A DNA stretch of 64,000 nucleotides from an uncultured Bdellovibrionales bacterium (GCA_964451495.1 CAYVHS010000002.1:5932-69931); one strand, 5' to 3'; positions 1-58,824 are shown, counted from the stretch's first letter. Notes: generated by a model not told the origin, from the letters alone. Translations and numbers: made by a program.

Positions 1-219
1 CTCCCAGATGGTAATGCTGAATTCACCCGAAAAATGGGTATGCTCGTCAAGAAAGAAAACTTGGGCTTCGGCGACCGATCTTGGCGCTACAGTATGTATG
101 TCGAAAATGGCATTATCAAAAAACTCTTCGCTGAAAAAGGTTTTATGGACAACTGTCCAGATGATCCATTCGAAGTAAGCGACGTCGATACGATGCTCGA
201 GTTTCTCAAAAGTCTTTAA
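1..219 (+). CDS. peroxiredoxin (Prx5-like, AhpC/TSA family), C-terminal part; 5' end lies outside the window
   Basis: Reading frame is open from nt 1 ([15 protein letters not shown]...). The tail [36 protein letters not shown] matches the conserved C-terminus of Prx5-type peroxiredoxins. Confidence 0.6.
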
Positions 220-230
220 AGCACACAAAA

Positions 231-263
231 AACACCCTTCGATAGACTCAGGGTGTTTTTTTA
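231..263. terminator. bidirectional intrinsic terminator between convergent genes
   Basis: Hairpin AACACCCT-(11 nt loop)-AGGGTGTT flanked by an A-run upstream and a T-run downstream. It sits between the peroxiredoxin stop (219) and the stop of the minus-strand oxidoreductase (269). Confidence 0.6.
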
Positions 264-268
264 TCTAC

Positions 269-1519
269 CTATTCTTTCTTGGCCGCTTCTTCTCCTGCTA
301 CGTATCCGGTGGTCCAACACAACTGTAAACTATATCCGCCCGATGGACGATCGATATCGAGCATGTCCCCGATAATATACAGATTCGAGTAAAGCCGTGA
401 TTGCATCGTTTTACAATCAACCTCCGAAAGTTTCACGCCGCCGCTTGTCACGATAGCCTTGTCCACACCGAGAAAACCACTCACCACCATCGGTAGACGA
501 TGCATGAGCCGTCCGATAGCAAGACGCTCCTCACGACTCACCGTATTCACTGATTTCTCTGGATCAATACTCGAGAGCTTTAGAATAACCAAAGCGACTG
601 ATGGCCGCAAAAAATCCCCCAACGCATTTTTTAATCTTTTTTTCTGATGTTCCAGAAAAGTCTGCTGTATTTTTTTATCCAGCGCACCCGCATCCACTCC
701 TGGCGCAAAGTCAAACGCTATCTCCACCTCTCCATACTTGGCTAATTCTTTCACATCCCGACTCATATTGAGTACTGCCGGACCGCTCAATCCAAAATGC
801 GTAAAGAGAATTTTTCCTTTGCGCGTGAAATGCTTTTTCCCATTCTGGAAGACAGAAAGTTTCGCGTCATCAAAACTGAGTCCCGAAAGATCTCGCACCC
901 AGGTATCACGTATTTTGATGGGTACAAGCGATGGCTCCGATTGGCGCACTGTATGATTCATCTGTTTCAAAAATTGAAATCCATCCCCGGTCGAACCCGT
1001 TTCCGGATGCGACGTACCACCCGTCGCCAAGATATACGAACGAGCAGTCAGTACTTCATTGCCACTGACACGTATTCCAATGATACCTCCTTCCTTCCTC
1101 TCGAATCCCTTTGCAACTATACCAAAACGAATACGGACTTTCCCCTCCTCCATATACCGACCAAGTGCCGCCCATACGGTCTCCGCTTTATTATCAGATG
1201 GGAAAACCCGACCTTCCGCTTCAGTCTTGGTCGCTATTCCACGCTCACGAAAAAACCGGAGCGTCTCCTCAACTCCAAAACGAGAAAAAGGTGAAAAAAG
1301 AAACTTCTTATCCTCTTTAAATCTACCAAAAAAATCAACGCTCGCATTGGTCATATTGCAGCGACCACCGCCAGTAATCAGTAATTTTTTTCCGAGCGAA
1401 AGATTCTTTTCAAGCAAAAGAACTGACGCGCCGCACTCGGCCGCCCGCCCTGCTGCCATCATCCCTGCCGGACCGCCGCCGATAACAATGACATCGTATT
1501 GATTTTTTTTCGTGTCCAC
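269..1519 (-). CDS. NAD(P)/FAD-dependent oxidoreductase, HI0933/BaiN-like flavoprotein family
   Basis: N-terminal Rossmann motif DVIVIGGGPAGMMAAGRAAECG, overall length about 415 aa, and a C-terminal GD..D motif typical of this flavoprotein family. Its start is 16 nt downstream of the EhrL-like stop. Confidence 0.7.
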   Translation of the reverse strand: MDTKKNQYDVIVIGGGPAGMMAAGRAAECGASVLLLEKNLSLGKKLLITGGGRCNMTNASVDFFGRFKEDKKFLFSPFSRFGVEETLRFFRERGIATKTEAEGRVFPSDNKAETVWAALGRYMEEGKVRIRFGIVAKGFERKEGGIIGIRVSGNEVLTARSYILATGGTSHPETGSTGDGFQFLKQMNHTVRQSEPSLVPIKIRDTWVRDLSGLSFDDAKLSVFQNGKKHFTRKGKILFTHFGLSGPAVLNMSRDVKELAKYGEVEIAFDFAPGVDAGALDKKIQQTFLEHQKKRLKNALGDFLRPSVALVILKLSSIDPEKSVNTVSREERLAIGRLMHRLPMVVSGFLGVDKAIVTSGGVKLSEVDCKTMQSRLYSNLYIIGDMLDIDRPSGGYSLQLCWTTGYVAGEEAAKKE

Positions 1520-1535
1520 AAAGATGTGTACGGCA

Positions 1536-3125
1536 TTACAAATCGTTTCCCGTGTAAGAAAGATTGAAGCTTTTGTTGATAAGAGGAAAATCCGGAACGA
1601 CGTCGTGTGTCACTGTATACGGAACAACTTGCCAATTAAGAAAAGATGGGTCACGTACTTTGACCCGAGCAATAGCCCCCGTATTATCCGTAACGATGAA
1701 ATAGACAATATCGCCACGAAAACCCTCAGTAATACCCACCGCGTGAGCATCAGATGGCAACATAGGAAGCACAACAGAGATATCATCCTTACAGTGAGGC
1801 AAGAGCGTCAATGCCTGACTGAGTAGACGGAACGATTGATGAATCTCACGAATACGCACCCGGAAACGCGCATATACATCTCCTGTGTGTTCGGTAGAGA
1901 TGCTCCACTGCATCTCCTGATAGGCCGCGTACGGGAAATCCGAGCGAGCATCGATTTCTTGGCCGGTCGCGCGAGCAGGAACTCCTACAGCACCATGATC
2001 GTGGCCAACCTTGGCATCGAGCGTTCCTGTTCCTCTTAAGCGATTGAGCACTGAATCAGTTTCTTTGGCTATCTCTTCGACTTCCATGAAATCTTTTTCT
2101 AAAATCTCCAAATCATCTTGAAAAAGATGAGCAGTTTCATTATCAATATCCCGCGAAACTCCTCCGGGTACGATGACTCCACGCAGAAACCGGCTCCCTG
2201 TCAGTTTTTCATTCCACTGCATGATACGCTCACGCAAACGAGTACCATGACTCCCGCCGAAACTAAATCCGGTATCGAGCATGATGAACGCTATATCATT
2301 CAGATGATTCGCAAGTCGCTCCAGCTCTGCATACACGACACGGAGCAAAAGCGCTCGCCTTGGCACTTCTGTCTGGGTCATCGCTTCGAGCGCCTGTACA
2401 AATGCTAACGCGTGATGATACGAGCTATCACCAGAAATACGCTCAGAAAGTTCCAATTTCTTTTCAAAGGACAATGTCTCAAAAAGTTTTTCCGTCCCCT
2501 TGTGAACATATCCAAGTCGCGGCTCGAGACGAAGAATTTCTTCGCCCAGTACACTAAAACGGAAGTGTCCCGGTTCGATAATACCTGCATGTACTGGACC
2601 GACAGGAATTTCATAAACCCCCTCTCCTTCAAATTTCTGCATTTCTGGCATCTTTTTTCCGATGGGCGTCTCTACTTTGGTGTTCCATGCGAACTCCTTC
2701 AAAAGCGGATGGATATTCTCTGAAAAATTCTCTTCATGAAGAATGATACGATCCGCCTTAGGATGCCCCATCGGAAGTAAACCGAAAAACGTCTTCACTT
2801 CCTGCTCATAGACCGCAAATTCATGATCAAATGATGTGAGCGATGGGAACGCCTTGATATACTGGTCAACAACAATAAACGGAACAAGAAATATATTTTC
2901 CTTGGGGACACCAAAAACGTAGTGGATACGGAATACTCCGCGTGCTGCACGCTCGTCTGTCGCAGCCATGGTCTTGAGAGGCAATTGATGGTCGTGCTTG
3001 AGTATTTTCACGACATGAAGGAGTGTCTCATCTGGTACCTCAAAAAGAATAACATTCCCCTCCTGGAAGGCTTGAAATTTCTCGAGGCCAAAACGCGAAA
3101 GAATACTTGGTGTTGCTTCGGACAT
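1536..3125 (-). CDS. NuoC-NuoD/HycE-like fused large subunit of a complex-I / group-4 hydrogenase-like module, with the [NiFe]-ligating cysteines replaced (EhrL-like)
   Basis: The N-terminal ~150 aa are NuoC-like. The remainder shows group-4 large-subunit similarity (GPVHAGIIEPGHFRF, RLEPRLGYVHKGTEKL). The L1 motif is ERISGDSSYHH where [NiFe] enzymes carry RxCGxCxxxH. The C-terminus is SFNLSYTGNDL where they carry DPCxxCxxR. Confidence 0.75.
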   Translation of the reverse strand: MSEATPSILSRFGLEKFQAFQEGNVILFEVPDETLLHVVKILKHDHQLPLKTMAATDERAARGVFRIHYVFGVPKENIFLVPFIVVDQYIKAFPSLTSFDHEFAVYEQEVKTFFGLLPMGHPKADRIILHEENFSENIHPLLKEFAWNTKVETPIGKKMPEMQKFEGEGVYEIPVGPVHAGIIEPGHFRFSVLGEEILRLEPRLGYVHKGTEKLFETLSFEKKLELSERISGDSSYHHALAFVQALEAMTQTEVPRRALLLRVVYAELERLANHLNDIAFIMLDTGFSFGGSHGTRLRERIMQWNEKLTGSRFLRGVIVPGGVSRDIDNETAHLFQDDLEILEKDFMEVEEIAKETDSVLNRLRGTGTLDAKVGHDHGAVGVPARATGQEIDARSDFPYAAYQEMQWSISTEHTGDVYARFRVRIREIHQSFRLLSQALTLLPHCKDDISVVLPMLPSDAHAVGITEGFRGDIVYFIVTDNTGAIARVKVRDPSFLNWQVVPYTVTHDVVPDFPLINKSFNLSYTGNDL

Positions 3126-3141
3126 AGATATTATATATTTG

Positions 3142-4596
3142 CTAGAGATTGGGTGATATCACGACTGCAGCTGCATCAATCAGCGATCGTAGAGATTCTG
3201 GAAAATAAAAACTGAGGACAATAATAAGGGCAGCCAGAAGGAGGAGTGGTATCTGTGTCAAAAGGTTAGATTCACCACTCTCGACACCTTCGGGGATAGC
3301 ACCGAAAAGCATAGCAGAAACGTGTCGGAAAAAACCAAAGAAAACAACTGCCAACGCAAAGAGGGCCATTCCCACAACCCAAGCGTACGCCCCCATACCA
3401 GAAGAAAATATGAGCATTTTGGTCGCGAACGTACCAAAGGGTGGCATTCCAACAATGGCAAAGACTGCCCCGAAAAAAAGTGGTCCGGTCAATGGCAACG
3501 CTGACAGAACGCCAGAAATATTTTTCATTTTTGTCGAGCTATAGCGGAGAAAAATATTTCCTGCTGAAAAAAAGAGGAGTGTCTTCATCAATGAATGGTA
3601 CAACATGTGCATAATAGCCGCGACCGTCCCAAAACCACCAAAACCAATACCAAGTGCGATGACGCCCATATGTTCGATACTCGAATACGCGAGCAAGCGT
3701 TTATAGCTCCGCTGTACAAAAATAATCAGCGCAGCAAGAATAACTGAAGCAAGTCCGAAATATATAAGGAGCGCTGAAGCAAATGCGGGACCGACCGCAA
3801 TATCCACAACTCCCTTGAAGCGGAGTACGGCCACAAGCGCCACGTTGAGCAAGACTCCTGACAGAAGCGCCGAAATAGGAGACGGTGCCTTGCTATGGGC
3901 ATCGGGCAGCCATGTATGCATCGGAACGAAACCAACTTTTGTCCCATATCCTACCAAGATGAAAATGAATGCGATTTTTACTGCGATTGGATTCATTCCC
4001 GAGGCTGTCTCGTGCAACATACTCCATGTAAGTGACCCCGTCCGAGCTTCAGGCAAAGCGAGGAACAACAGCGTACCAAGGAGAGAGAGGAGTAGTCCTA
4101 GCGAATTGATAATCAAATATTTCCAAGCTGCTTCCGTCGCCGATGGCTTGTTATAAAAACTAATAAGAAATGCCGTAGAAAGTGTCGTCGCTTCGATAGA
4201 TATCCACATGACTATCGGGTTAATAGTCGACACAGCGAGTGACATAGCAAAAAGGAAAAACTCAAGCAACAAGAAAAATTGCCGGACACGACTCGGGCCG
4301 ATAATATCTTTCTTCACCTCGGCGCGCAGGTATCCAATCGCATAGAGACTGACAAAAAATCCCGAAAGCGTAATAAGGAGGAGCATAAACACCCCGAAGG
4401 CATCGACCGAAAAAAATGTCGAAGCTTTGAAGTATCCATCCGCTAGCACGCTTGGTATAAGCACCATAACGAGCGAAAGGGCAATGAGAGAAGAGAGAAG
4501 AGACGCTCCTTCGATAAACCGAGTCTGTTTGGCCCGCATAAACGCAATGAAACAAGCAGCGAGAAGTGGTGCAGAAATGAGGAAAATAAATATCAT
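3142..4596 (-). CDS. complex I antiporter-like membrane subunit (NuoM/NuoN/HyfF-like; EhrD-like)
   Basis: 484 aa polytopic membrane protein with the conserved Mrp/NuoLMN core (…WLPDAHSKAPSPISALL…). It lies in the operon between the HyfE-like and large-subunit genes. Confidence 0.7.
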   Translation of the reverse strand: MIFIFLISAPLLAACFIAFMRAKQTRFIEGASLLSSLIALSLVMVLIPSVLADGYFKASTFFSVDAFGVFMLLLITLSGFFVSLYAIGYLRAEVKKDIIGPSRVRQFFLLLEFFLFAMSLAVSTINPIVMWISIEATTLSTAFLISFYNKPSATEAAWKYLIINSLGLLLSLLGTLLFLALPEARTGSLTWSMLHETASGMNPIAVKIAFIFILVGYGTKVGFVPMHTWLPDAHSKAPSPISALLSGVLLNVALVAVLRFKGVVDIAVGPAFASALLIYFGLASVILAALIIFVQRSYKRLLAYSSIEHMGVIALGIGFGGFGTVAAIMHMLYHSLMKTLLFFSAGNIFLRYSSTKMKNISGVLSALPLTGPLFFGAVFAIVGMPPFGTFATKMLIFSSGMGAYAWVVGMALFALAVVFFGFFRHVSAMLFGAIPEGVESGESNLLTQIPLLLLAALIIVLSFYFPESLRSLIDAAAVVISPNL

Positions 4597-4600
4597 AAGG

Positions 4601-5263
4601 TTAGTTTTCTTCAGTAAGATGTCTTAACTCGCCCGTATCAAGTGATCCAAATTGGCGATGAATCATCCCAATAAAAGCACTCCCGATAGCAATCCAAACA
4701 ACAATATCAAAAATAATACCCATCTCAAGAGCGAGGGGTTGTTCGATACCAACGAAAGACGCCAGGAGAACAATGCCATTCTCAAGCGAAAGCACACCAA
4801 TCATCTGAGTAAAGGCTCCCTTGCGATTAATCATGAGAAAAATCGAGGTAAAGATAATGGCGAGATTCAAAGAAATTGAACCAAGTGCCTGTGGCCAAAG
4901 ACCCGTAAGAGGCAAAAAAACTCGCGAGTAAGAAAAAAATACCAGTCCCATAAGAACTATGAATGTGAATGGCATCGAAAGATAGCTACTAGCAGATCCT
5001 TGAGTACCGAAACGGCGTAGCAGCCGAGAAAAGAAAATCGGAACTGCTACTGCTTTGATAAAAAACGTCAGGAGACCGACCAACACAAGACTCTGCTCAT
5101 TCTCTGCAATACCCGCACCACAAAGCAGTAGCCCTACAGCGGCCGATTGCAAGGCATAAAATCGAATAAGGGCTTTGTTTCGCTTAGCGAGATGCATAAA
5201 AATCGCGGCGAGAAAAGCAATAAGGTCAAGAAAAAAGAAAATTTCTACGAAGTGCTCAAACAT
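4601..5263 (-). CDS. HyfE/NuoK-like small membrane subunit (EhrC-like)
   Basis: 220 aa, multiple TM helices; size and hydropathy are like hydrogenase-4 component E. Its position in the operon supports the call. Confidence 0.5.
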   Translation of the reverse strand: MFEHFVEIFFFLDLIAFLAAIFMHLAKRNKALIRFYALQSAAVGLLLCGAGIAENEQSLVLVGLLTFFIKAVAVPIFFSRLLRRFGTQGSASSYLSMPFTFIVLMGLVFFSYSRVFLPLTGLWPQALGSISLNLAIIFTSIFLMINRKGAFTQMIGVLSLENGIVLLASFVGIEQPLALEMGIIFDIVVWIAIGSAFIGMIHRQFGSLDTGELRHLTEEN

Positions 5264-5395
5264 ACCGGGTAGTGAAACTTCAAATGTGAATTATATCAGA
5301 CTGCCTCATACGACTATATATTCTATTTCTCTTGAGATACTTCATAAGTTTTTTCTTACATGATTTTTGAAGCTCTACTACCGGGCATAAAATCT

Positions 5396-6403
5396 TTAAA
5401 ATGTAATAATGACACCGAGAGCAATCACTCCAAGCACAAATGATGTAAACAAGAGATCGGGCACACGGAAAATGCGAAACTTCGCCATAGTCGATTCAAT
5501 AAACGAGATGCTCCATAAGAGCGTGAGTGCTTTCAAGATAAAAAGAGTCGCAGAAAAAAACAATACCCCAAAAGTAGCAGTATCAAGACGAGCAGCCAAA
5601 CCCCATGGAAAGAAAATATTCGCCCCAAGCGCGATAAAAATAAGTAGCTTGTTCGCAGCTGCCCACTCCATAAGAGCAAGGCGCTTACCAGAATATTCGA
5701 GAATCATTGCCTCATGAATCATCGTCAACTCGAGATGAGTCGACGGGTTATCTACAGGGAAACGTCCATTTTCTGCCAAAAGAGCAATGAAAAATCCAAA
5801 AAACGCAATAAAGAGGGGCATGTATGATTGAAAAGGAAGTATCGACAGACGCTCGGCTATCATCATGACATTGCCGTTTTCTGCTGCCATCGATGCGACC
5901 AAAAGAGCAAAGAAAAGTCCTCCTTCGGCCAGGGCTGCCATAGTCATTTCGCGACTCGAACCGAACCCTCCAAAACCACTTCCACTATCTATTCCCGCGA
6001 GAGCCAGGAAAAATGTAGAGAGAGCGAAAAGATATATTATAACAATAAAATCCCCTGTCGGAACGAATGAAAGCACGCTTCTATCACCTATAGAAAGTGA
6101 CGGTGCAACGGTTGTGATAACCGGAATACTCGCACCGACAACCAGCGTCACAGCAAATATAAGATAGGGTGAAAAACGAAATATCCATGAAGCATCAGCA
6201 GAAATCACTTCGTCTTTTCCAAAAAGTTTTCGGAGGTCAGCATACGGCTGAAAAATACTTGCGCCGACACGATTCTGCATACGAGCTTTTGCTTTCCGTA
6301 TAACACCGATACACAACGGTGAAAAAATCGGGACGAGAGCGAGTTGCAGAATAAAAATAAGTATACTCATCATATGAAAGTCATTAATGGGTCGCCCAAA
6401 CAA
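5396..6403 (-). CDS. NuoH/HycD-like membrane subunit (EhrB-like)
   Basis: 335 aa polytopic protein with NuoH/HycD-like features (…FQPYADLRKLFGKDE…). It overlaps the upstream antiporter gene by 20 nt. Confidence 0.7.
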   Translation of the reverse strand: MFGRPINDFHMMSILIFILQLALVPIFSPLCIGVIRKAKARMQNRVGASIFQPYADLRKLFGKDEVISADASWIFRFSPYLIFAVTLVVGASIPVITTVAPSLSIGDRSVLSFVPTGDFIVIIYLFALSTFFLALAGIDSGSGFGGFGSSREMTMAALAEGGLFFALLVASMAAENGNVMMIAERLSILPFQSYMPLFIAFFGFFIALLAENGRFPVDNPSTHLELTMIHEAMILEYSGKRLALMEWAAANKLLIFIALGANIFFPWGLAARLDTATFGVLFFSATLFILKALTLLWSISFIESTMAKFRIFRVPDLLFTSFVLGVIALGVIITF

Positions 6404-8432
6404 GAAGAACTATCAGAGTAACAAAAACATACAGAAGATATACATTGATATTTCCTCCCTGGATACGCCTCGCTCGCGAAGCAACAAATGTTAGAGCTAT
6501 ACTCATGGGCCGATATAACATCTTCTGATACGGATCATGAAATATCGTCTTCACCTCTTGCGACTTGATGAAATAACGCGTATTTTCATCACGGTATTCT
6601 ACTTCTGTCTGACGGGTCGAACGGAGAACCCCGCGGAATATAGTCATAAGCGACCGAGAAAAGCTCGTTGCGGTAATCTCCATACGTGGCCCAAGTGGGG
6701 TACCACAATCCCATGTCGAAGCAATAGATACCTTGCGGGAACGAGTAAAAAATATCACGAGTCCCGTAGCAAAAATGAATATCGCGGACAAAGCGATGGC
6801 GGCGACATCAAGCGACAACACATTGGCAAATTCGCTCCGCGCATCAATAAATTCCATAAAGGGAAACGCAAGCGTGAGCGGTTGTATCAGGCCAATGCTT
6901 GCGACCACGCCAACCAGTGCAGCAATAATGTACGTAGAAAAAATACCCAAAAGGAGAGTAAGTAAAGCCAACGTCCCCATAGCTATGAGCATGGGCCATG
7001 GAGACTCATGTCTACGTTCTGTCTCTTCAGTTCTCGGACGAGCAAGAAACGTCACCCCAAACGCTTTCACAAAACATGCAGCCGCTAACCCACCAGTAAA
7101 CACGAGACTAGCAATAGCAAAAATAAATACCGATTTCACTATGACACTGACGGAACCGATACCAACAAAAAGCGCCTGAAATGTAAGCCATTCACTCGCA
7201 AAGCCATTGAAGGGAGGGAAGGCAGAAATAGCCAGTGATCCGATAAGAAAAAAGAATGAAGTGAAAGGGAGTACCTTGATAAGCCCTCCGTATTCTTCCA
7301 TATTACGCGTCCCCGTCGCCGAAACTACTGAACCAGCAGCCAAAAAGAGGAGTGACTTGAAGATAGCATGATTCAATGTGTGATAAAGCGCCGCCGCCAG
7401 AGCAAAAAGAGCAAAATTCTGGAACCCAAGACTAAAAAATGTCAGTGCAGCACCAAACCCGAGCAAAATAATGCCAATATTCTCGACACTATGATAAGCG
7501 AGCAAGCGCTTCAGATCATGTTCGGAAAGCGCGTACAATACGCCGAGAATCGACGAAAGTCCTCCTAGAACTAAAAAGGCTAGTCCCCACTCAATCTGAG
7601 CGACAGGGAAAAAATCGAAAAAGAAACGGATAAACATAAATATAGCCGTCTTGATCATGACTCCTGACATAAGAGCCGATACATGAGAAGGCGCTGCTGG
7701 GTGAGCCTCTGGTAACCAGATATGCAAAGGAATCATACCGGCCTTAGTACCAAAACCAACCAGTACGGCGAAGAAAATAATCCCCTGCATCAGAGGCGCG
7801 ATGGCACCAGCTCCTGCTCGCCACTCATCAAAACTAAACGAGCCCGTTGCTTGGTACGCCAAGAAGAAAGCTAACATAATAAAGGCGGTCCCAAAATGAG
7901 TCATCAAGAGATAGAGGAATCCGGCTTTGATATTTTCAGCCTTACGATACTCAAAAACAACCAGGAAATACGATGCCAGTGACATGATTTCCCAAACAAG
8001 GAGAAAGAAAAGAGCCTGATTGGCAAGCGTCACCAATATGAGACTCCCTATAAACGCATTATAAAAAAATCCGAATACTCCCAACCGGTATTTTCCATAA
8101 AAATGTTTCTGGTACGAAAAGCCGTACAGAGACGCGACAGAAGCAACAAGCGAAATGATACCAAGAAAAAAAGCCGAAAGTGCATCCAGACGAAACTCAT
8201 ATACGAATCCTGAAAAGGTCGACGGCAGAATAAAGGCAATTCCTTGCCCAGAAAAAAGTACTCCCACTGATAGAGCGAGAGCGAGCAGCGACCCCAGAAG
8301 CGCCAAACCATGTGACCAAAAACCAGCCATCCGTCCACCAAAAAGACGATCAAGAAACAAAGCACCAACACCGCCCACTAAAAAAAGAGTGACGAGCAAA
8401 AGTATACTAGCTGGGGAAAGGAGAAAGTCCAT
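6384..8432 (-). CDS. NuoL/HyfB-like antiporter subunit (EhrA-like)
   Basis: 682 aa with the NuoL/HyfB signature (…HIWLPEAHPAAPSHVSALMSGVMIK…) and a long C-terminal extension as in NuoL/HyfB. Confidence 0.75.
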   Translation of the reverse strand: MDFLLSPASILLLVTLFLVGGVGALFLDRLFGGRMAGFWSHGLALLGSLLALALSVGVLFSGQGIAFILPSTFSGFVYEFRLDALSAFFLGIISLVASVASLYGFSYQKHFYGKYRLGVFGFFYNAFIGSLILVTLANQALFFLLVWEIMSLASYFLVVFEYRKAENIKAGFLYLLMTHFGTAFIMLAFFLAYQATGSFSFDEWRAGAGAIAPLMQGIIFFAVLVGFGTKAGMIPLHIWLPEAHPAAPSHVSALMSGVMIKTAIFMFIRFFFDFFPVAQIEWGLAFLVLGGLSSILGVLYALSEHDLKRLLAYHSVENIGIILLGFGAALTFFSLGFQNFALFALAAALYHTLNHAIFKSLLFLAAGSVVSATGTRNMEEYGGLIKVLPFTSFFFLIGSLAISAFPPFNGFASEWLTFQALFVGIGSVSVIVKSVFIFAIASLVFTGGLAAACFVKAFGVTFLARPRTEETERRHESPWPMLIAMGTLALLTLLLGIFSTYIIAALVGVVASIGLIQPLTLAFPFMEFIDARSEFANVLSLDVAAIALSAIFIFATGLVIFFTRSRKVSIASTWDCGTPLGPRMEITATSFSRSLMTIFRGVLRSTRQTEVEYRDENTRYFIKSQEVKTIFHDPYQKMLYRPMSIALTFVASRARRIQGGNINVYLLYVFVTLIVLLVWATH

Positions 8433-8438
8433 AGGTGA

Positions 8439-9035
8439 TTATTTTTCCGCTATAGTTTGTGATTCGATATCCCGAAGCATCTGAAACAATGCTGCAAGCA
8501 CTACTTTCGGTGACGGTGGATCCCCAGGAATCTTGAAATCAACAGGGATGACGTCTTCAACTCTATTGTAAATCGCGTATGAATCACGATACACTCCGCC
8601 ATGAATCGCACCGTCCCCCACTGCGACCACAATCTTGGGGGTCGGGGTGGCTTCATAGGTATGGCGTAACCCCTGAGCCATATTGCGCGATACGGGGCCA
8701 GTCACAAAGAGCATATCTGCATGCCGGGGAGACGCAACAAAATGAACACCAAAACGTTCAACATCATAGTATGCATTGGTAAGAGCGGTCAGTTCTTGCT
8801 CTTCAGCATTACTAGAACCGGCTGCTACCTGACGGATAGCGAGCGATCCACGGAAAAGCTTTCGTATAGATGCCTGTAGCTTTTCCCCTAATACCTCCGA
8901 ATCTAGTCCAAGAATCTCTTCTTCGGGGATAACCAACCTCGGAGTGGTGACAATTTTTCGGAGCAATGGATACATATGTAAAGCAAAACGAAAAAAAGAC
9001 CGCCGAGACTCTCGTATAGAATATGGCGGAAACAT
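8439..9035 (-). CDS. NuoB/hydrogenase-small-subunit-like protein lacking all four N2 Fe-S cysteines (EhrS-like)
   Basis: The NuoB-fold is recognisable (…FGVHFVASPRHADMLFVTGPVSRNM…KIVVAVGDGAIHGG…VDFKIPGDPPSP). However, the CCxxE motif is AAGSSNAEE, GxCxxxGG is GDGAIHGG and GCPP is GDPP. Confidence 0.7.
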   Translation of the reverse strand: MFPPYSIRESRRSFFRFALHMYPLLRKIVTTPRLVIPEEEILGLDSEVLGEKLQASIRKLFRGSLAIRQVAAGSSNAEEQELTALTNAYYDVERFGVHFVASPRHADMLFVTGPVSRNMAQGLRHTYEATPTPKIVVAVGDGAIHGGVYRDSYAIYNRVEDVIPVDFKIPGDPPSPKVVLAALFQMLRDIESQTIAEK

Positions 9036-9084
9036 TTCCTATCCTAGTACTTTTCACGCGCCTTGTCAAAACCCGAGTACTCCA

Positions 9085-9687
9085 TCAGACACTACGTCTT
9101 TTTTCCTTAATATACGAAAGGATTCCTGGCAAAAATGAAAGGAAAATAATCAAAAGCACGATAGGCAAAAGATACTTGTCCACATCTATAACACTGCCGA
9201 GCAAATACCCCAGCATCACCAGCGTGACCGTCCAAAGTAGCCCTCCTATCAAATTATAAAAAAAGAATACTCGGTACCGCATATTCCCGACGCCAGCTAC
9301 AATCGGCGCGAATGTACGGACTATTGGCATAAAGCGGGCAAGCACAATTGTTTTTGGCCCATGCTTTTCGTAAAAAGATTGTGCCCTGGTAGCGTGCGCC
9401 TTCTTAAAAATAAACGAGTCATCTTTGTTAAAAAGTTTTGGCCCGATTCGACGACCAAATTCATAACCAACCACATTACCCAGTACTGCCGAAATAAACA
9501 AACCAATAATCAGAATCGGCAAAGAAAAAAACTTCTGACCAGCCAACACACCCGCGACAAACAAAAGACTATCTCCTGGCAAAAAAAATCCCAAAAATAA
9601 ACCTGTTTCTGCGAATACGATAGAAAAAATCCCTGTATACCCGACCGTCTGAATCAGCGTCATCAAATCAATACCAAAAAAGCTCAT
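9085..9687 (-). CDS. DedA/SNARE-associated family membrane protein
   Basis: 200 aa with the DedA hallmark (…IFAETGLFLGFFLPGDSLLFVAGVLAG…). Confidence 0.75.
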   Translation of the reverse strand: MSFFGIDLMTLIQTVGYTGIFSIVFAETGLFLGFFLPGDSLLFVAGVLAGQKFFSLPILIIGLFISAVLGNVVGYEFGRRIGPKLFNKDDSFIFKKAHATRAQSFYEKHGPKTIVLARFMPIVRTFAPIVAGVGNMRYRVFFFYNLIGGLLWTVTLVMLGYLLGSVIDVDKYLLPIVLLIIFLSFLPGILSYIKEKRRSV

Positions 9688-9752
9688 ATATTCATCTTTA
9701 TAATGTAATCTTTACAAGTATAGCGGAAAAGTTGTAATTAAGAAAGAAAAAG

Positions 9753-9779
9753 CCGGCCTGTATAGGCCGGACATTTTTT
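9753..9779. terminator. intrinsic terminator downstream of rplL (hairpin with T-runs on both strands)
   Basis: CCGGCCT-GTAT-AGGCCGG stem-loop. The minus strand reads the hairpin followed by CTTTTTCTTTC. It lies 20 nt past the rplL stop. Confidence 0.65.
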
Positions 9780-9799
9780 CTTGGAACGTAGTCTCTTGC

Positions 9800-10204
9800 T
9801 TACTTGAGAACGACTGTGGCACCAGCCTCTTCGAGCTTCTTCTTGAAGTTCTCGGCATCAGCCTTAGAAACCTTTTCTTTAATCGCTTTCGGAGCAGCAT
9901 CCACGAGGTCTTTGGCTTCCTTGAGTCCAAGACCGGTGATTTCACGAACAGCCTTGATGACATTGATCTTCTGGGCACCAGTAGCGGTCAACTCGACATC
10001 AAATTCAGTCTTCTCTTCCACAACAGCAGCCTCGGCTGCAGGAGCAGCTCCCATCATCATCGGAGCAGCAGCTGAAACACCAAACTTATCCTCGAGCACT
10101 TTGACGAGTTCAGAGAGGTCGAGCACGCTCATCTTCTCGATTTCAGCTACGAGCTTTTCAAATTTCGCTGGCACCACTACTACTTCTTTCGTTTCTTCTG
10201 TCAT
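9800..10204 (-). CDS. rplL: 50S ribosomal protein L7/L12
   Basis: 134 aa. The N-terminal dimerisation helix, an Ala/Pro-rich hinge ([16 protein letters not shown]) and the C-terminal domain ([24 protein letters not shown]) are all present. Confidence 0.95.
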
Positions 10205-10247
10205 ATGTGTGACGTTAAAATAAATTACTTAATAAACGACAAATGAA

Positions 10248-10772
10248 TTATGCTTTCTTTTCTTCGATTGCCTTAATTACTTGCACTAACCCGCGGAGAT
10301 TACCACCGAGGACCCGGACAAAACTTGCAATCGGAGCCTGGAGGGTGCCCACAAGGATACCACGGAGTTCCTGCTGGCTCGGAAGCTTGGCAAGGGCCTT
10401 GATGTCCTCAATAGACAATTCTTTAGCCCCCAATGCACCACCCTCAATCGAAAGCGGCACATCCCTATTGGCTTTATTGAAACTTGTCAGGACTTTAGCC
10501 GCAGCCACTTCATCACTCGAAAAGGCGACACCAATCTGACCATCAAGTTTTCTCGCGTTCATCTCGATACCAGCATCCTTGAGAGCGATGTTGAGAAGCG
10601 TCTTCTTGAGCACCTGCCAGCTCGATCCGCTTTTCGCTAATTCTCTACGAATGGCGGTCAAATCTTTCACGGTCACTCCCTTGAAATTCGCGAAGACCAA
10701 TGCCTTGGAATTCTTCGCCTTTTCAGTGACTTCTGCGACGAGCGACTCTTTCTGTTGTTTCGTCTGCTGCAT
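10248..10772 (-). CDS. rplJ: 50S ribosomal protein L10 (start taken at the internal Met MQQTKQQKESLVAEV)
   Basis: Sequence is L10-like throughout (…LVFANFKGVTVKDLTAIRRELAKSG…). The ORF continues to 10862, but the L10 alignment begins at the Met at 10772. Confidence 0.85.
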   Translation of the reverse strand: MQQTKQQKESLVAEVTEKAKNSKALVFANFKGVTVKDLTAIRRELAKSGSSWQVLKKTLLNIALKDAGIEMNARKLDGQIGVAFSSDEVAAAKVLTSFNKANRDVPLSIEGGALGAKELSIEDIKALAKLPSQQELRGILVGTLQAPIASFVRVLGGNLRGLVQVIKAIEEKKA

Positions 10773-10811
10773 AAGCGTTTTGATTAATGTACTTGAATTT
10801 GATAGTAAAAA

Positions 10812-10846
10812 TAAAAAAATCTGCGGTATGAACCGCAGATATATCA
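10812..10846 (-). promoter_or_regulatory. rplJ leader hairpin with U-run (putative L10-leader attenuator)
   Basis: Perfect 8-bp stem ATCTGCGG-TATGAA-CCGCAGAT. On the minus strand it is followed by TTTTTTTATTTTT, about 40 nt upstream of the rplJ start. Confidence 0.45.
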
Positions 10847-11055
10847 CGTCGCTCACAAACAACGATGACGAGGGAAATCCCTGAAAACAAACCTCTTGAC
10901 GCTATCTTTTCTGACCATCGTCGAGAAATCTGTTCCTCGTGAGGAGCTTAGATATCCTATGATACGCCCTTAGGCCATACATAGGCGTGTGCCTCATGTC
11001 TACGGAGTATTCTATTGTATGTCTATTGTACTGGAAAAATCGCTCTTTGTCAATC

Positions 11056-11481
11056 CTACAAAGCGGGGGCGACTTCTTCTTTCTTCTCTTCGACCTTCAC
11101 TTCTGGAGTAACAGGGGCCACATCAGCTGGAGCAGCAGCGACAACTACTGGGGCTTCTTCAGTCTTTACTTCCTCAACAGGGACTTCTTTTACGACTGGA
11201 CGAGGCATTTTCTTGGCAATTTTCTTACCCGTAACAATACCTTCGCGCACCAGCGTATTAAATACGACATCAGAAGGCTGTGCTCCTTGGCCAATCCAAT
11301 AGAGAATACGATCTTTATTCAAAATAGTAGTTTTCTTGATCGGATCGACGCTGCCCAATACTTCCACGTGACGCTTGCCCGGAGCCTTGGTATGTTCCTG
11401 CAAAACGACGCGAAAATGCGCGCGATTTTTCTTCCCTGTGCGATTGAAACGAATAGTCAACATATCAGAAATAAACAGCAT
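11056..11481 (-). CDS. rpsP: 30S ribosomal protein S16 with Ala/Pro/Val/Glu/Lys-rich C-terminal extension (true start may be the Met at 11463)
   Basis: MLTIRFNRTGKKNRAHFRVVL matches the S16 N-terminus. The C-terminal extension (PRPVVKEVPVEEVKTEE…) is low-complexity. Confidence 0.85.
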   Translation of the reverse strand: MLFISDMLTIRFNRTGKKNRAHFRVVLQEHTKAPGKRHVEVLGSVDPIKKTTILNKDRILYWIGQGAQPSDVVFNTLVREGIVTGKKIAKKMPRPVVKEVPVEEVKTEEAPVVVAAAPADVAPVTPEVKVEEKKEEVAPAL

Positions 11482-11520
11482 TTAGATACACCCTACCACC
11501 TCTTGGAGGGTACGGACTCC

Positions 11521-11549
11521 ACTATAACCCCTTTTTTTAACCCTGTCAA
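11521..11549 (-). promoter_or_regulatory. sigma70-like promoter for rpsP
   Basis: On the minus strand: TTGACA, a 17-nt spacer, then TATAGT, about 35–55 nt upstream of the rpsP start codons. Confidence 0.5.
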
Positions 11550-11576
11550 CAAGAAAAACCAAGAAAAAAATAAGGG

Positions 11577-11606
11577 CCGCGCAATCTAGTTACATTGCGC
11601 GGCACC
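11577..11606 (-). terminator. intrinsic terminator after the hypothetical gene at 11617..12090
   Basis: Perfect 10-bp stem GCCGCGCAAT-CTAGTTAC-ATTGCGCGGC, followed on the minus strand by a T-rich tract. Confidence 0.55.
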
Positions 11607-11616
11607 AGCACTGCCA

Positions 11617-12090
11617 TTATCCCAATTCTGTCAGAGCAACCAGGCTTTCCGGATCAAATTCTTTTCCACCATAACTCCCGATAAGCATGTAGGAATAATC
11701 AAAGATATTCCCTATAGGTATCGAAAAAATGTCCCGACCACAACTGGCAATTTCCAACAAATGTTCCCTACCCCGAAAAAAGAACACGTGGTCTACAAAC
11801 GGTAACGTCGCGAGTCTTTCTGCTCGCTGTTTGACTACGTACGGCAAAACATTATCCGTGGCGATGTCCACCAGAACCCCGACCCACAAGGATGGCTCGT
11901 CATAGGAACGAATCCACGTTGCCTGATTTGGGAAAAATGCCTTGCCGATACTCGGGTTATCGAAAACGCCGGACACTAGTCGAGCTCGCCTGTTGTAGGC
12001 TCGATACAGCCCCAGAAGCGCCACCAAAATATTCTCCGGAATTATTTTTGGACTACAAAAACCGTCACCAATTCCTTGGCTGTCCACCAT
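11617..12090 (-). CDS. hypothetical protein (157 aa), no recognisable family
   Basis: Clean ORF with its own terminator; no motifs recognised. Confidence 0.4.
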   Translation of the reverse strand: MVDSQGIGDGFCSPKIIPENILVALLGLYRAYNRRARLVSGVFDNPSIGKAFFPNQATWIRSYDEPSLWVGVLVDIATDNVLPYVVKQRAERLATLPFVDHVFFFRGREHLLEIASCGRDIFSIPIGNIFDYSYMLIGSYGGKEFDPESLVALTELG

Positions 12091-12234
12091 GATTTACCCC
12101 CTTTCGAAACATTAAAGTACGAATTCGCATCATACAAATAACGGTACTCTTTGTCAAGAGCGCTTTGAAAATACGCCCTTTACCCTCCCTCTGGCCTATC
12201 TGCCCCCAGGGAACTCGCAGACATGCATCCCCTG

Positions 12235-27001: not shown

Positions 27002-27424
27002 TTACCCTCGCAAATGTTTAAAAAAATATTTGATGTATTTTTCGATATCGAGTTGGCTCGCATACTGCCTCACGACCAGATTGTCATTACCAGCGATGAG
27101 AGGGGAAAGAGTATTGTGATCACGTTTGCGAAAAAAACACAACACCGGTTTGCCCAAAGACTCTGCTAGTCCAATCTCATAACCTACCTCGAGCGATGGC
27201 GTCGTCACCTCGGCTATCATAACATCGGCCTCTTTCAGCCATTCCGTATTCCGCTCATACACAAGTATACTTTTCTTTTTTTCCCCTAGTTGTGGCGACT
27301 CTCTGTGAGCAAGATTTTCAGTCAACACTTCCCCACCATAACGATTCAAAAATCTTATAATCTGAAAACACCATTCTTCATCTTCGAAACTCGCATACAT
27401 CGAAGCAGCGAAATAGATTTTCAT
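27002..27424 (-). CDS. nucleoside 2-deoxyribosyltransferase-like (Rcl/NDT-fold) protein
   Basis: 140 aa. MKIYFAASMY…VGYEIGLAESLGKPVLCF matches the NDT/Rcl fold signature. Confidence 0.5.
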   Translation of the reverse strand: MKIYFAASMYASFEDEEWCFQIIRFLNRYGGEVLTENLAHRESPQLGEKKKSILVYERNTEWLKEADVMIAEVTTPSLEVGYEIGLAESLGKPVLCFFRKRDHNTLSPLIAGNDNLVVRQYASQLDIEKYIKYFFKHLRG

Positions 27425-27447
27425 ATGTTTGACGTCTCAAACGGATT

Positions 27448-27873
27448 CTATACCAGTCCCGTGCTGCCGAATCCCGCTTCTCCTCGTATCGTAGCATCTA
27501 ACTCGGCTACTTCGCAAACTTCCGCCAGCTCAACTTTTTGTATCAATATCTGGCTTATTTTGGCTCCTTTTTCAATACTATACGGCTCCGCCGAAAGATT
27601 CACGAGAATCACTTGGACTTCTCCGCGATAAGACGCGTCAATCACGCCTCCCATAGCCTTAAGTCCTCCCTTGGCTGCCACGCCCGATTTATCCCATATC
27701 AGCCCCACATACCCAGTTGGTATCGCTATGGCAATACCTGTTTTGATTGCTCGTCGATCACCAGATTGAAGCACATGCTCTTCGACAGAATACAAATCCA
27801 GCCCAGCATCATCAATATGAGCGCGCACTGGCATTTTCGCCTCTGGTACTAATTTTTTTACTTCAAGCTTCAT
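27448..27873 (-). CDS. dut: dUTP diphosphatase
   Basis: Dut motifs are present (AGLDLYS, GLIWDKSG, RGEAGFGSTG). Confidence 0.9.
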   Translation of the reverse strand: MKLEVKKLVPEAKMPVRAHIDDAGLDLYSVEEHVLQSGDRRAIKTGIAIAIPTGYVGLIWDKSGVAAKGGLKAMGGVIDASYRGEVQVILVNLSAEPYSIEKGAKISQILIQKVELAEVCEVAELDATIRGEAGFGSTGLV

Positions 27874-27876
27874 AAA

Positions 27877-28482
27877 CTATAATTCTTTATCAAAAGCTTT
27901 TCTTATAATAGCAGCTATCTCCCCCGATACTGCCTCGATACTCTGATTAGCACATACCTGTTTCCAGCCATACCGTTCTCCGAGAAGGAGATGAAAATTC
28001 TTGCATATCCTGATCCTCTCATCCGCCATCTCATTGCGATGCCCTTTCTCTATCGCCGTGTCGAAACGTTCTCCATGCATCAAAATGCAAAGATCTGGCT
28101 GATACAAATCCTGATTGATTTTCTCAAGGTATTCGAGATCGGCGCCCCATGTCAGGCCCCATGCTATCCCAGTACCGGTATAATCCTCTGCGACGATCCA
28201 TTCTCCGGCCTCAAGTCGCTTTTTGAGTTCCTCTTCATACTCCTTCCGATTTTCGGCATACTTCATTTGGAGCGCCTCGGTCGAAAGCTCGTTCTTTTCC
28301 CGAAACTCTGTATCCCGCAAATACTTATAGATGAAGGGGCCCGTTGGTTCGAGATCGTATACGGGGTATTTGAGACGACTCGCTTGTTTCCCTTGTGACT
28401 TCAGCCATGTCACCAAGAGCTCGACTTGTGTCGTCTTACCAATACCATTGATACCGTAGAGCGTGATGAGTTTACCTATCAT
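27877..28482 (-). CDS. tmk: P-loop (d)NMP kinase, thymidylate-kinase-like
   Basis: ITLYGINGIGKTTQ P-loop, about 200 aa, inside a dTTP-synthesis module. The family assignment is tentative. Confidence 0.5.
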   Translation of the reverse strand: MIGKLITLYGINGIGKTTQVELLVTWLKSQGKQASRLKYPVYDLEPTGPFIYKYLRDTEFREKNELSTEALQMKYAENRKEYEEELKKRLEAGEWIVAEDYTGTGIAWGLTWGADLEYLEKINQDLYQPDLCILMHGERFDTAIEKGHRNEMADERIRICKNFHLLLGERYGWKQVCANQSIEAVSGEIAAIIRKAFDKEL

Positions 28483-28487
28483 AAGCC

Positions 28488-29048: not shown

Positions 29049-29052
29049 TATG

Positions 29053-41217: not shown

Positions 41218-41259
41218 ATATTTTTACTTCCTTTTTAATCAATAATCTCTTTGAAAATT

Positions 41260-58823: not shown

Positions 58824-58824
58824 A

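Follow-up and report, generated by a model that had tools for sequence, protein, structure and literature searches.

Leaving Mrp aside, the complex I superfamily has complex I, NDH-1, Fpo, MBH, MBS and FHL as its characterised members, and we know of none among them in which ion translocation is not driven by a redox reaction near the proximal Fe-S cluster. To our knowledge, the structures of complex I, MBH and FHL also indicate that in every characterised member electrons must enter through this cluster to reach the buried site. How the effect of the redox reaction is passed on to the membrane arm is still debated. An Ehr complex of this general type, EhrA-B-C-D-L-S, was reportedly described in Geobacter sulfurreducens, in work attributed to Coppi (in 2005) and Marreiros (in 2013). 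The function of Ehr is given as unknown in PMC6349859, PMC4378227, PMC10284858 and PMC7894505. In Margulisbacteria, Firmicutes and others, the small subunit bears the proximal cysteines and is fused to a NuoI-like 2x[4Fe-4S] domain (PMC6349859, Suppl. Note 4). Ehr of CPR bacteria, in which the NiFe cysteines of the large subunit are missing, has already been published (Jaffe 2020, PMC7304191), and there the CPR sequences lie inside the Ehr subclade and are monophyletic within Ehr. That study analysed the large subunit only (Fig. S6b); the small subunit, Fe-S loss, operon structure and selective constraint are absent from it. The operon described here very probably encodes a complex of the same clade and likewise lacks the large-subunit L1/L2 cysteines. 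Of the additional loss, that of the small-subunit Fe-S ligands, we found no published account.

The operon and its assignment to the Ehr family

The analysed window, a stretch of DNA of 64,000 nucleotides (64 kb), contained six contiguous ORFs on the minus strand at 1536-9035, in the order S-A-B-C-D-L (Table 1). The host of the operon is a Candidatus Moranbacteria (CPR) bacterium with a tiny genome. A first-pass annotation had claimed a six-gene module of the Ehr type for this region, and the ORFs were indeed found at these coordinates, with a strong family match for all six. The proteins were assigned by profile matches to Pfam and NCBIfam, the best NCBIfam matches being HyfB, HyfE and HyfF. 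The six types were all present, namely NuoL-like (A), NuoH-like (B), HyfE-like (C), NuoM/N-like (D), large (L) and small (S) subunits, and PF01058, PF00361, PF00146, PF00329 with PF00346, and HyfB/HyfE/HyfF all matched. These matches, together with alignments to solved structures, upheld the Ehr assignment, and every peptide string that had been quoted was present in the sequence. The complex is the CPR form of the Ehr family and is related both to Hyf-type membrane hydrogenases and to complex I. A neighbor-joining tree of the large subunit, built without a hydrogenase outgroup or support values, grouped the CPR sequences with other Ehr-type sequences.

Table 1. Subunits and sequence features of the operon, with positions in the window
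Feature	Position	Strand	Description
EhrS, NuoB/HycG/MbhJ-like small subunit	8439..9035	-	198 aa; PF01058, 82 bits, 3.9e-23
EhrS first cluster motif AAGSSNAEE	8799..8825	-	S75, E78 at two Cys positions of GSCNGCE
EhrS motif GDGAIHGG	8595..8618	-	G142 in place of third cluster Cys
EhrS motif PGDPP	8514..8528	-	D172 in place of fourth cluster Cys (GCPP)
EhrA, HyfB/HycC/NuoL-like antiporter-type subunit	6384..8432	-	682 aa; PF00361 5.7e-56; NF005086 (HyfB) 662 bits
EhrB, HycD/NuoH-like subunit	5396..6403	-	PF00146 1.1e-42
EhrB TM5-6 loop AENGRFPVDNPSTHLELTMIHEAMILEYSG	5687..5776	-	coupling loop of NuoH/HycD; alignment to HycD
EhrC, HyfE-like, NuoK-like C-terminal part	4601..5263	-	220 aa; NF008556 (HyfE) 1.7e-14; PF00420 0.0029
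EhrD, HyfF/MbhH/NuoM/N-like antiporter-type subunit	3142..4596	-	484 aa; PF00361 2.3e-51; NF005044 (HyfF) 422 bits
EhrL, fused NuoC + NuoD/HycE-like large subunit	1536..3125	-	529 aa; PF00329 4.6e-12, PF00346 6.5e-48
EhrL beta1-beta2 loop GPVHAGIIEPGHFRF	2556..2600	-	hydrogenase-like; I183 = quinone-site His38 of Nqo4
EhrL L1 motif ERISGDSSYHH	2412..2444	-	S231, S234 at two N-terminal NiFe Cys positions
EhrL L2 motif NLSYTGNDL, then stop codon	1539..1565	-	S523, G526 at C-terminal NiFe Cys positions

The order S-A-B-C-D-L was seen in all CPR loci, being identical in each of the approximately 25 that cover the whole operon, whereas the Acidobacteriota, Verrucomicrobia and Bacteroidota loci had the order A(-A)-B-C-D-L-S. 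The subunit letter names imply that A-B-C-D-L-S is the order originally described for Ehr. The layout claimed at first holds for the subunit types but not for the gene order of those operons, in which S comes last instead of first. Absence of a NuoI/HycF ferredoxin was likewise confirmed for this operon but not as a general trait of Ehr.

Redox ligands of the large and small subunits

PF00329 (the NuoC part) spanned residues 29-149 of EhrL, and with the match to PF00346 this gave the NuoC-NuoD fusion of Ehr. E. coli Hyf/Hyc (FHL, PDB 7Z0S) was the best solved-structure match for the HycE-, HycG-, HycD- and HycC-like subunits, and EhrL matched HycE (7z0s_E) at 6e-59. An AF2 monomer model of EhrL had a pLDDT of 83, with 7z0s_E as the best Foldseek match (TM 0.85). 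In the alignment with HycE, RISGDSSYHH stood opposite RVCGICGFAH and NLSYTG opposite DPCYSC, which bore out the claim that all four [NiFe] cysteines are replaced (C,C by S231,S234 and C,C by S523,G526). EhrL has a lone cysteine, C445, which belongs to neither of the ligand motifs L1 and L2. EhrL ends at the exact end point of mature hydrogenase large subunits. The same L1/L2 motifs were present in the 85 relatives examined, with L2 almost unchanged, and over 44 sequences the C-terminal tail varied little or not at all. Known Ehr complexes share with this one the six subunit types, the fused large subunit and the signatures E.[IV]SGD[ST].. and terminal ..NLSY[ST]GND[LR] that replace the NiFe cysteines. 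In comparison with group 4 [NiFe]-hydrogenases (Hyf/Hyc/Mbh/Ech), L1 RxCGxCxxxH, L2 DPCxxCxx[HR] and the four-Cys proximal cluster are all missing. In comparison with complex I (Nuo/Nqo), the N2 cysteines are missing and so are the quinone-site residues, T. thermophilus Nqo4 Tyr87 being G232 and His38 being I183 in the alignment to 2fug_4. Within the beta1-beta2 loop, G176, P177 and H179-F190 were invariant and V178 nearly so (44 sequences); the pLDDT of this loop was low in the monomer model.

EhrS matched MbhJ (6cfw_J, 8.6e-26) and HycG (7z0s_G, 6.9e-25) and contained no cysteine, and PF01058 was the only domain recognised in it; a possible start at M21 (base 8975) would give a protein of 178 aa. 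In both alignments GSSNAE corresponded to GSCNGC, GDG to GAC and PGDPP to PGCPP. The four N2-cluster cysteines had been reported as replaced, and their loss stands. In the first motif the register against CCxxE was one residue off, the ligand positions being S75/E78; this slip leaves the conclusion on ligand loss unchanged. An alignment of 30 sequences with Cys-bearing relatives showed the same substitutions. The first motif had S/A/E in 28-31 of 31 CPR loci, in comparison with C/G/C in 28 of 28 Cys-bearing relatives, and the fourth-ligand Asp (D172) was present in 31 of 31 CPR loci. Only 11 positions were fixed differently between the CPR small subunits and the Cys-bearing relatives, four of them cluster ligands and two more within the first cluster motif. 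Cys-less small subunits of other lineages (10 clusters) carried Asp/Glu at 17 of 40 ligand positions.

The small subunits of non-CPR Ehr kept the four-Cys pattern CCCC, whether or not a 2x[4Fe-4S] domain was fused to them, and Fer4 together with Oxidored_q6 was matched in the non-CPR relatives. The NuoI-like domain usually accompanies the proximal cysteines in known Ehr, and both are gone here. Since the non-CPR small subunits keep the Fe-S cysteines, the Fe-S-free state is a derived trait of the CPR clade and not of Ehr. Two loci of Pyrinomonadaceae-like Acidobacteriota (L082 and L083) have the same S-A-B-C-D-L order, an Ehr-type large subunit and a short small subunit of equal length (172-175 aa), also without a ferredoxin domain; however, GSCNGCE, GDC and PGCPP are retained there, so that they presumably hold one [4Fe-4S] cluster. 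The operon of a Chloroflexi MAG had lost the Fe-S ligands too, and its nearest relatives retained the cysteines. This loss was probably independent of that in CPR, and replacement of redox ligands has probably occurred more than once.

Membrane subunits, selection and gene neighbourhood

EhrA matched HycC (7z0s_C) at 3.3e-67, EhrB matched HycD (7z0s_D) at 1.1e-42, and EhrD matched MbhH (6cfw_H) at 3.5e-37. The HycD alignment begins at residue 12 of EhrB, and translation of EhrB probably starts at M11/M12 (6373 or 6370) rather than at the TTG at 6403. Residue conservation in the membrane arm was scored over 30-37 CPR and 37-48 non-CPR homologues, and every canonical charged residue examined (in A, B, the NuoK-like part of C, and D) was invariant or nearly so. 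EhrA residues E148, K230, H237, K261, H355, K359 and E414 were invariant across CPR loci, as were E135, K220, H227 and K338 of EhrD, in which position 393 was K or E. E161 of EhrC was invariant, and E180 and D186 nearly so. The charged residues of EhrB were invariant or nearly so in CPR loci; in its TM5-6 loop E211, R214, D218, E225 and E231 were invariant, and at position 236, 23 of 31 CPR loci had E and the other 8 had D. Both coupling loops (EhrL beta1-beta2 and EhrB TM5-6), which in complex I link the peripheral site with the membrane arm, were conserved. EhrA and EhrD are homologous to the antiporter-like subunits of Mrp (PDB 6Z16, 7QRU; MrpA 3.9e-43, MrpD 1.9e-31), which is redox-independent, and the TM5 Glu, TM7 Lys and TM12 Lys/Glu are present as EhrA E148/K230/E414 and EhrD E135/K220/K393. 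MrpB/E/F/G are absent from this operon, and Mrp for its part lacks a NuoH/NuoB/NuoD-like module.

Purifying selection is strong, and about equally so, on each of the six genes (median dN/dS: S 0.046, A 0.045, B 0.041, C 0.030, D 0.042, L 0.054). Dozens of species have an intact operon, with identities as low as 53%.

All reading frames of the window were free of NuoI-type ferredoxin and Fe-S motifs, and the approximately 50 larger predicted genes scanned in it included neither a hyp gene nor an Fe-S gene; a nearby NuoI-like subunit or hydrogenase maturation genes, which had been named as evidence against the initial reading, were both missing from the window as scanned. Across 620 kb of sequence from related CPR loci, the pattern CxxCxxCxxxC occurred only 6 times, a chance-like number. 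In comparison with E. coli Hyf/Hyc, the complex lacks the NiFe ligands, the proximal cluster, HycF/HyfH, the HycB/HyfA ferredoxins and formate dehydrogenase; in comparison with complex I, the operon lacks NuoA, NuoI and NuoJ, as well as NuoE, F and G of the 14-subunit form. Because the NiFe ligands, the cluster ligands, the NuoI domain and the quinone Tyr/His are all absent, the complex has no electron-transfer route known in the superfamily.

Candidate mechanism and alternatives

The reading that we prefer, and to which the sequence data would lead us to give a little less than an even chance, is that the complex may be a redox-independent cation/proton translocator in which the peripheral stub is kept as a gate. 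Since the redox ligands are all lost and the ion-moving membrane part is seemingly intact, ions probably move without electron transfer. The complex would act as an Mrp-style cation/proton antiporter or as a gated proton conduit, using or interconverting existing ion gradients, and the stub (S + L) would plug and gate the NuoH-like channel. The residues that replace the cysteines (S, E, D in EhrS; S, D, S, S, H in EhrL) may form a polar/acidic switch, protonatable or cation-binding, instead of a redox switch. The peripheral subunits have kept their sequence family and, for EhrL, also the predicted fold. The Na+ path proposed for Mrp and MBH consists of MrpB/E/F/G, and because no homologues of these occur in the operon, antiport is without a demonstrated structural basis here.

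Two further observations bear on the stub and speak against a gate. Fe-S-bearing Ehr and Fe-S-free Ehr share the same L-pocket motifs (SGD[ST]S and NLSY[ST]GND), which could mean substrate binding rather than a gate. The peripheral module of approximately 700 residues is also conserved more strongly than a simple plug seems to need.

An alternative, unlikely in our estimate and drawn wholly from analogy, is that a small substrate binds in what was once the NiFe/N2 pocket and that the ion gradient is coupled, in either direction, to a non-redox hydration, protonation or exchange. Complex-I-type (PF00361) antiporter subunits are coupled to non-redox catalysis in DabAB and in the CupA/NDH-1 vectorial carbonic anhydrases. 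The near invariance of the L-pocket motifs and of the polar or acidic residues that replace the EhrS cysteines, the identity of the L pocket with and without Fe-S, and the conserved coupling loops on either side of the interface would all suit such chemistry, but Pfam and NCBIfam profiles revealed neither a catalytic motif nor a metal site or extra domain, and no conserved accessory gene accompanied the operon in the loci compared. Loss of every cofactor ligand, and genes that appear split in a few related MAGs (L002, L015, L023, L034, L036, L039), might instead suggest a decaying hydrogenase or complex I relic heading for loss. However, dN/dS of 0.03-0.05 in all six genes effectively refutes this reading, and the intact operons in dozens of species and the invariant or nearly invariant functional residues make it most improbable.

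It is also rather improbable that the complex is still a redox enzyme into whose L pocket an unlinked partner or diffusible cofactor feeds electrons directly, bypassing the Fe-S relay, with ferredoxin, a flavin, NAD(P)H or a downstream flavoprotein as the candidate donor. The L pocket is conserved with Fe-S-bearing Ehr, and a TIGR00275/HI0933-like FAD protein is encoded on the same strand after a 16-bp gap downstream of EhrL. In L002 and L009, too, an HI0933-like flavoprotein is the next gene after EhrL, and 12 other Moranbacteria loci have one no more than 6 kb away. Yet in most loci opposite-strand genes separate it from EhrL, no such gene was found beside the operon in Magasanikbacteria, other CPR lineages or the Chloroflexi locus, and the quinone ligands are missing.

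In this operon strong selection has preserved the whole transmission apparatus (the NuoB/NuoD folds, both loops and the charged residues of the antiporter-like subunits), while every redox ligand has been replaced. There is some chance, though a fairly low one, that the Fe-S-free Ehr of CPR and Chloroflexi represents the first complex-I-type coupling between peripheral and membrane parts without electron transfer, in which the acidic pocket would be a protonation, cation or ligand switch that gates or drives ions, or in which the gradient would drive non-redox chemistry. If so, the complex would offer a minimal natural model of how complex I is coupled. CPR bacteria lack respiratory chains and the maintenance of their ion gradients is an open question, and the complex would be a candidate for management of the membrane potential in them. 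The natural states form a graded series with three clusters, one and none, and comparing them structurally and biochemically could separate a mechanical from a redox role of the stub. Should the stub prove to do no more than plug a secondary antiporter, the finding would be a modest one; even then, it would correct the annotation of these proteins as subunits of NADH-quinone oxidoreductase or Ni,Fe-hydrogenase III.

The six-gene operon and its family assignment

Six adjacent ORFs, all minus-strand, were found in the region 1536-9035. The first-pass annotation had described a six-gene module running from a NuoB-like to a NuoC+HycE-like subunit, and this was borne out by the Pfam and NCBIfam matches. 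EhrA also scored 662 bits against NF005086 'hydrogenase 4 subunit B', slightly under the cut-off of 667. EhrC gave no match in the phmmer search of PDB sequences, and its identity was taken from NF008556 (HyfE) and a weak match to PF00420. Its large-subunit motifs and subunit inventory place the predicted complex in the Ehr family. The Ehr six-subunit layout claimed earlier stood for the inventory but not for the gene order, since the small-subunit gene comes first here, whereas it was last in the other Ehr operons examined. In those operons an Fe-S-bearing small subunit was also fused to a NuoI-like domain, a feature missing here.

A [NiFe] hydrogenase was ruled out by its cysteine motifs, which were tested and were not present. 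Complex I was ruled out by the lack of the N2 ligands, the quinone ligands and NuoA, I, J, E, F and G, and Mrp by the lack of MrpB, E, F and G and the presence of a NuoH/B/D module. Because a terminator-like hairpin lies ahead of the DedA gene, DedA and the Ehr genes might be transcribed together; the promoter and terminator scan of positions 1-11000 found 14 sites against 16.8 expected from shuffled sequence, and no transcription unit is claimed from it.

Table. Features of the window, with the matches or remarks belonging to each.
Feature	Position	Strand	Size	Match or remark
HI0933-like / TIGR00275 'aminoacetone oxidase family' FAD protein	269-1519	-		begins 16 bp past EhrL stop
EhrL, NuoC+NuoD fusion	1536-3125	-	529 aa	PF00329 plus PF00346
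EhrD, HyfF/NuoM-like	3142-4596	-	484 aa	NF005044, 422 bits
EhrC, HyfE-like	4601-5263	-	220 aa	NF008556, 1.7e-14
EhrB, NuoH-like	5396-6403	-	335 aa	PF00146, 1.1e-42
EhrA, HyfB/NuoL-like	6384-8432	-	682 aa	PF00361, 5.7e-56
EhrS, NuoB-like	8439-9035	-	198 aa	PF01058, 3.9e-23
TTGACA-17-TAGGAT site	9069-9041			within scan whose counts stayed under shuffled expectation
DedA-family membrane protein	9085-9687	-		directly upstream of EhrS
Terminator-like hairpin	9770-9753			same scan, counts not above shuffled sequence
SMC homologue	12235-14547	-	770 aa	TIGR02168, 656 bits, two stretches of 1181-position model
dNTP/thymidylate cluster	27002-31227	-		compact
Type IV pilus gene set	39837-48400	-		typical of CPR genomes
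Low-GC island	57735-63795			33-40% GC vs ~46%
GajB (Gabija)	57735-58823			452 bits
GajA (Gabija)	58825-60474			736 bits
Type II restriction enzyme (GmrSD-N/HNH)	60478-61581
EcoRI-type methylase	61583-62680
tRNA-Ser(GCT)	63067-63154			adjoined by low-GC island
LAGLIDADG-like ORF	63169-63795

Replacement of the NiFe and Fe-S ligands

The best phmmer matches among PDB sequences were subunits of E. coli FHL and P. furiosus MBH. In the alignment of EhrL with HycE (7z0s_E, 6e-59), RVCGICGFAH corresponded to RISGDSSYHH and DPCYSC to NLSYTG, and EhrL ended at the exact site of the mature hydrogenase C-terminus. The four NiFe ligand positions were occupied by S231, S234, S523 and G526. EhrL has a single cysteine, C445, which is part of neither the L1 nor the L2 ligand motif. 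When EhrS was aligned with MbhJ (6cfw_J) and HycG (7z0s_G), GSCNGC corresponded to GSSNAE, G-A-C to G-D-G, and PGCPP to PGDPP. The same register was kept without gaps in a 30-sequence alignment that included close Cys-bearing relatives. The four proximal-cluster positions of EhrS were S75, E78, G142 and D172, and the protein had no cysteine at all. All peptide strings quoted in the first-pass annotation were found in the window ORFs, and its claim that the four NiFe and four proximal-cluster cysteines are replaced agreed with these PDB-sequence alignments, which showed no offset cysteine. The quinone ligands of complex I were also missing from EhrL, with Tyr87 and His38 of T. thermophilus Nqo4 aligned to G232 and I183.

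The motif CxxCxxCxxxC of NuoI-like and other ferredoxins was absent from the 64-kb window in all six reading frames; 620 kb of CPR loci contained six chance-like matches. Among the ~50 larger predicted window genes scanned, which were housekeeping, pilus or defence genes, there were no hyp or ferredoxin genes. A NuoI-like Fe-S subunit or hydrogenase maturation genes nearby would have counted against the first-pass annotation; neither turned up in these scans. This Ehr-family complex is very probably unable to bind NiFe or an Fe-S cluster.

The AF2 model of EhrL was largely confident (pLDDT 83, pTM 0.86); its best structural match was HycE (TM 0.85), with E. coli NuoCD next. Its low-confidence parts were the first three residues, G176-F190, the short adjoining stretch 204-207, and P511-D528. 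The EhrS model, built from the 30-sequence alignment, was set aside because its mean pLDDT was 61.6, its best Foldseek E-value was 0.15 and its matches were meaningless. Conclusions on EhrS were therefore drawn from the sequence alignments.

Distribution and states of the small subunit

Thousands of EhrL homologues were found, and the closest named ones (53-99% identity) were from Candidatus Moranbacteria/Moraniibacteriota, Uhrbacteria, Howlettbacteria or 'Patescibacteria group'. The survey of related loci, which the first-pass annotation had suggested, took one genome per species and returned 80 loci. The order S-A-B-C-D-L was seen in CPR loci wherever the operon was covered, including the Magasanikbacteria locus L033. 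In Acidobacteriota, Verrucomicrobia and one Bacteroidota MAG (~42% identity) the order was A(-A)-B-C-D-L-S, as the Ehr subunit names imply. The EhrL motifs E.[IV]SGD[ST].. and terminal ..SFNLSY[ST]GND[LR] were common to the CPR loci and to these three phyla, which indicates that the NiFe loss was ancestral to the family. Papers on the Ehr family give its function as unknown (PMC6349859, PMC4378227, PMC10284858, PMC4758237), and in Geobacter the Ehr subunits are known to be expressed (PMC7894505). Jaffe et al. 2020 (PMC7304191) described CPR large subunits without metal-binding cysteines as a monophyletic subclade within Ehr, so CPR Ehr with a Cys-less large subunit is already reported and is not new. 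In the literature searched, which did not include Marreiros 2013 (doi 10.1016/j.bbabio.2012.09.012), no description of an Fe-S-free EhrS was found, and an earlier notice is possible. A wholly cofactor-free yet strongly conserved 'Q-module' would be surprising and experimentally useful to specialists, within the limits that the family and its CPR occurrence are known and its function is inferential.

Non-CPR EhrS proteins had 10-16 cysteines and kept all four of the proximal cluster. An N-terminal 2x[4Fe-4S] Fer4 domain was fused to their NuoB-like domain in 3/3 scanned, which agrees with the fusion of NuoB and NuoI known from other Ehr complexes (PMC6349859 Suppl. Note 4). CPR EhrS consisted of the NuoB-like domain alone, with S/T/N, E, G/D and D at the four ligand positions; nearly all Moranbacteria had the S-E-G-D pattern, and one Magasanikbacteria EhrS retained Cys at position 2. 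Searched with EhrS, a set of 1.8 billion cluster representatives yielded 5171 relatives. Among the best 150 clusters, ~13 lacked all four cysteines (SEGD, NEGD, NEGN, SVGN, DAAD, SAES, DADN, DVDD, DVES, TDES) and ~8 more lacked some of them. In ten Cys-less clusters, with 40 ligand positions between them, 17 positions held an acidic residue. Two Cys-deficient clusters were named Chloroflexota/Dehalococcoidia, and the other look-ups gave mostly unnamed metagenome proteins.

The Chloroflexi contig also had its operon in the order S-A-B-C-D-L, and its large subunit was of the Ehr type. The closest relatives of its EhrS (~60% identity) were short (172-175 aa), kept GSCNGCE/GDC/PGCPP and belonged to the same S-first operon on Pyrinomonadaceae-like contigs. 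There are thus three predicted states, with three clusters (S-last, fused ferredoxin), one (S-first, short S) or none (S-first; CPR and the Chloroflexi MAG). In a neighbor-joining tree of EhrL that had no support values or outgroup, CPR was monophyletic and the Chloroflexi sequence grouped with the one-cluster operons, which suggests at least two independent losses of the Fe-S ligands. Just 11 positions were fixed differently between CPR EhrS and its one-cluster relatives; four of these were the ligands and two more lay in the first cluster motif, which points to a change targeted at the cluster site.

Partial replacement (patterns such as CEGD, ECED, TCGN and DCAA) was seen in eight cluster representatives (P0127, P0146, P0165, P0179, P0246, P0248, P0253, P0261), and a Magasanikbacteria small subunit (L033:4297-4878) kept a single cysteine. 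Such partly replaced subunits suggest that the proximal cluster site has decayed step by step and more than once. Seven Verrucomicrobia loci (L052, L058, L062, L063, L064, L067, L075) had two tandem Ehr operons (~1-4700 and 4700-12300); the large subunit of the upstream copy was divergent (E.[VL]AGDTT..; ..NLSYCG[FH]DL) and had a cysteine within the L2 region. Two consecutive EhrA genes (~2400-6800) were found in the operons of Acidobacteriota (Vicinamibacteria) loci L040-L044, L048-L051, L054, L057, L065, L066, L072 and L076, so their membrane arm would have three antiporter-like subunits rather than two. Many operon-bearing MAG records (L001, L003, L005, L006, L010, L013-L016, L018-L020, L022, L024-L026, L028, L030, L035, L036) were titled 'uncultured Bdellovibrionales bacterium' despite full Moranbacteria synteny (L10, L7/L12, DedA, Ehr); these titles in TPA assemblies are probably taxonomic mislabels.

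Constraint, possible mechanisms and neighbouring genes

Residue conservation was scored in 30-37 CPR and 37-48 non-CPR homologues, with alignments to HycD, MbhH and HycC. Invariant or nearly invariant residues were E148, K230, H237, K261, H355, K359 and E414 in EhrA; R45, D56, D139, R151, E152, E160, E211, R214, D218, E225, E231, E246, E303 and R310 in EhrB; E161, E180 and D186 in EhrC; and E135, K220, H227, K338 and K/E393 in EhrD. The beta1-beta2 loop (G176-F190) and C-terminal tail (P511-D528) of EhrL were almost wholly invariant in 44 sequences. Median dN/dS (Nei-Gojobori, 12 closely related locus pairs) was 0.046 (S), 0.045 (A), 0.041 (B), 0.030 (C), 0.042 (D) and 0.054 (L), showing that the cofactor-less subunits S and L were under as much constraint as the membrane subunits. 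That the operon is a decaying relic is contradicted by these medians (0.030-0.054) and is highly improbable.

The electron routes known in the superfamily are unavailable here, because the NiFe site, proximal cluster, ferredoxin domain and quinone ligands are all gone. Direct electron supply from an unlinked partner, for example the downstream HI0933-like flavoprotein, to a redox reaction seems doubtful; that protein is not a conserved operon member. The conserved pocket might host gradient-coupled non-redox chemistry, which we regard as unlikely. The membrane arm has every appearance of being able to translocate ions, and the coupling loops are conserved on both interface sides. The best-supported reading, held tentatively, is a redox-independent cation/proton translocator that would work in an Mrp-like way, with the peripheral stub kept as cap and gate over the NuoH-like channel. 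By our own inference, the Ser/Asp/Glu-dominated replacements are compatible with a protonatable or cation-binding site in place of the negatively charged cluster.

The flavoprotein gene also adjoined EhrL in L002 and L009; in other Moranbacteria the two were 0.4-6 kb apart with opposite-strand genes between. It was rejected as a dedicated electron-input partner, not being an operon member: most Moranbacteria loci have opposite-strand genes between it and EhrL, and it was absent beside the operon in other CPR lineages and Chloroflexi. DedA adjoined EhrS in 27 Moranbacteria loci and was absent in Magasanikbacteria and other CPR lineages. It was rejected as a functional partner because L7/L12, L10 and SMC were equally kept upstream, and the adjacency was treated as clade synteny. 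The SMC homologue, syntenic in several Moranbacteria loci, appears to have much shortened coiled-coil arms.

Elsewhere in the window, the dNTP/thymidylate cluster encodes nucleoside 2-deoxyribosyltransferase, dUTPase, thymidylate kinase, a dNMP-kinase-like P-loop protein, DHFR, ThyA and a dCTP deaminase-like protein. The pilus set comprises prepilin peptidase, two small ORFs, PilC-like T2SSF, PilT- and PilB-like ATPases, PilO-like and PilM. The low-GC island, with its Gabija and restriction-modification genes, is probably an integrated defence island.
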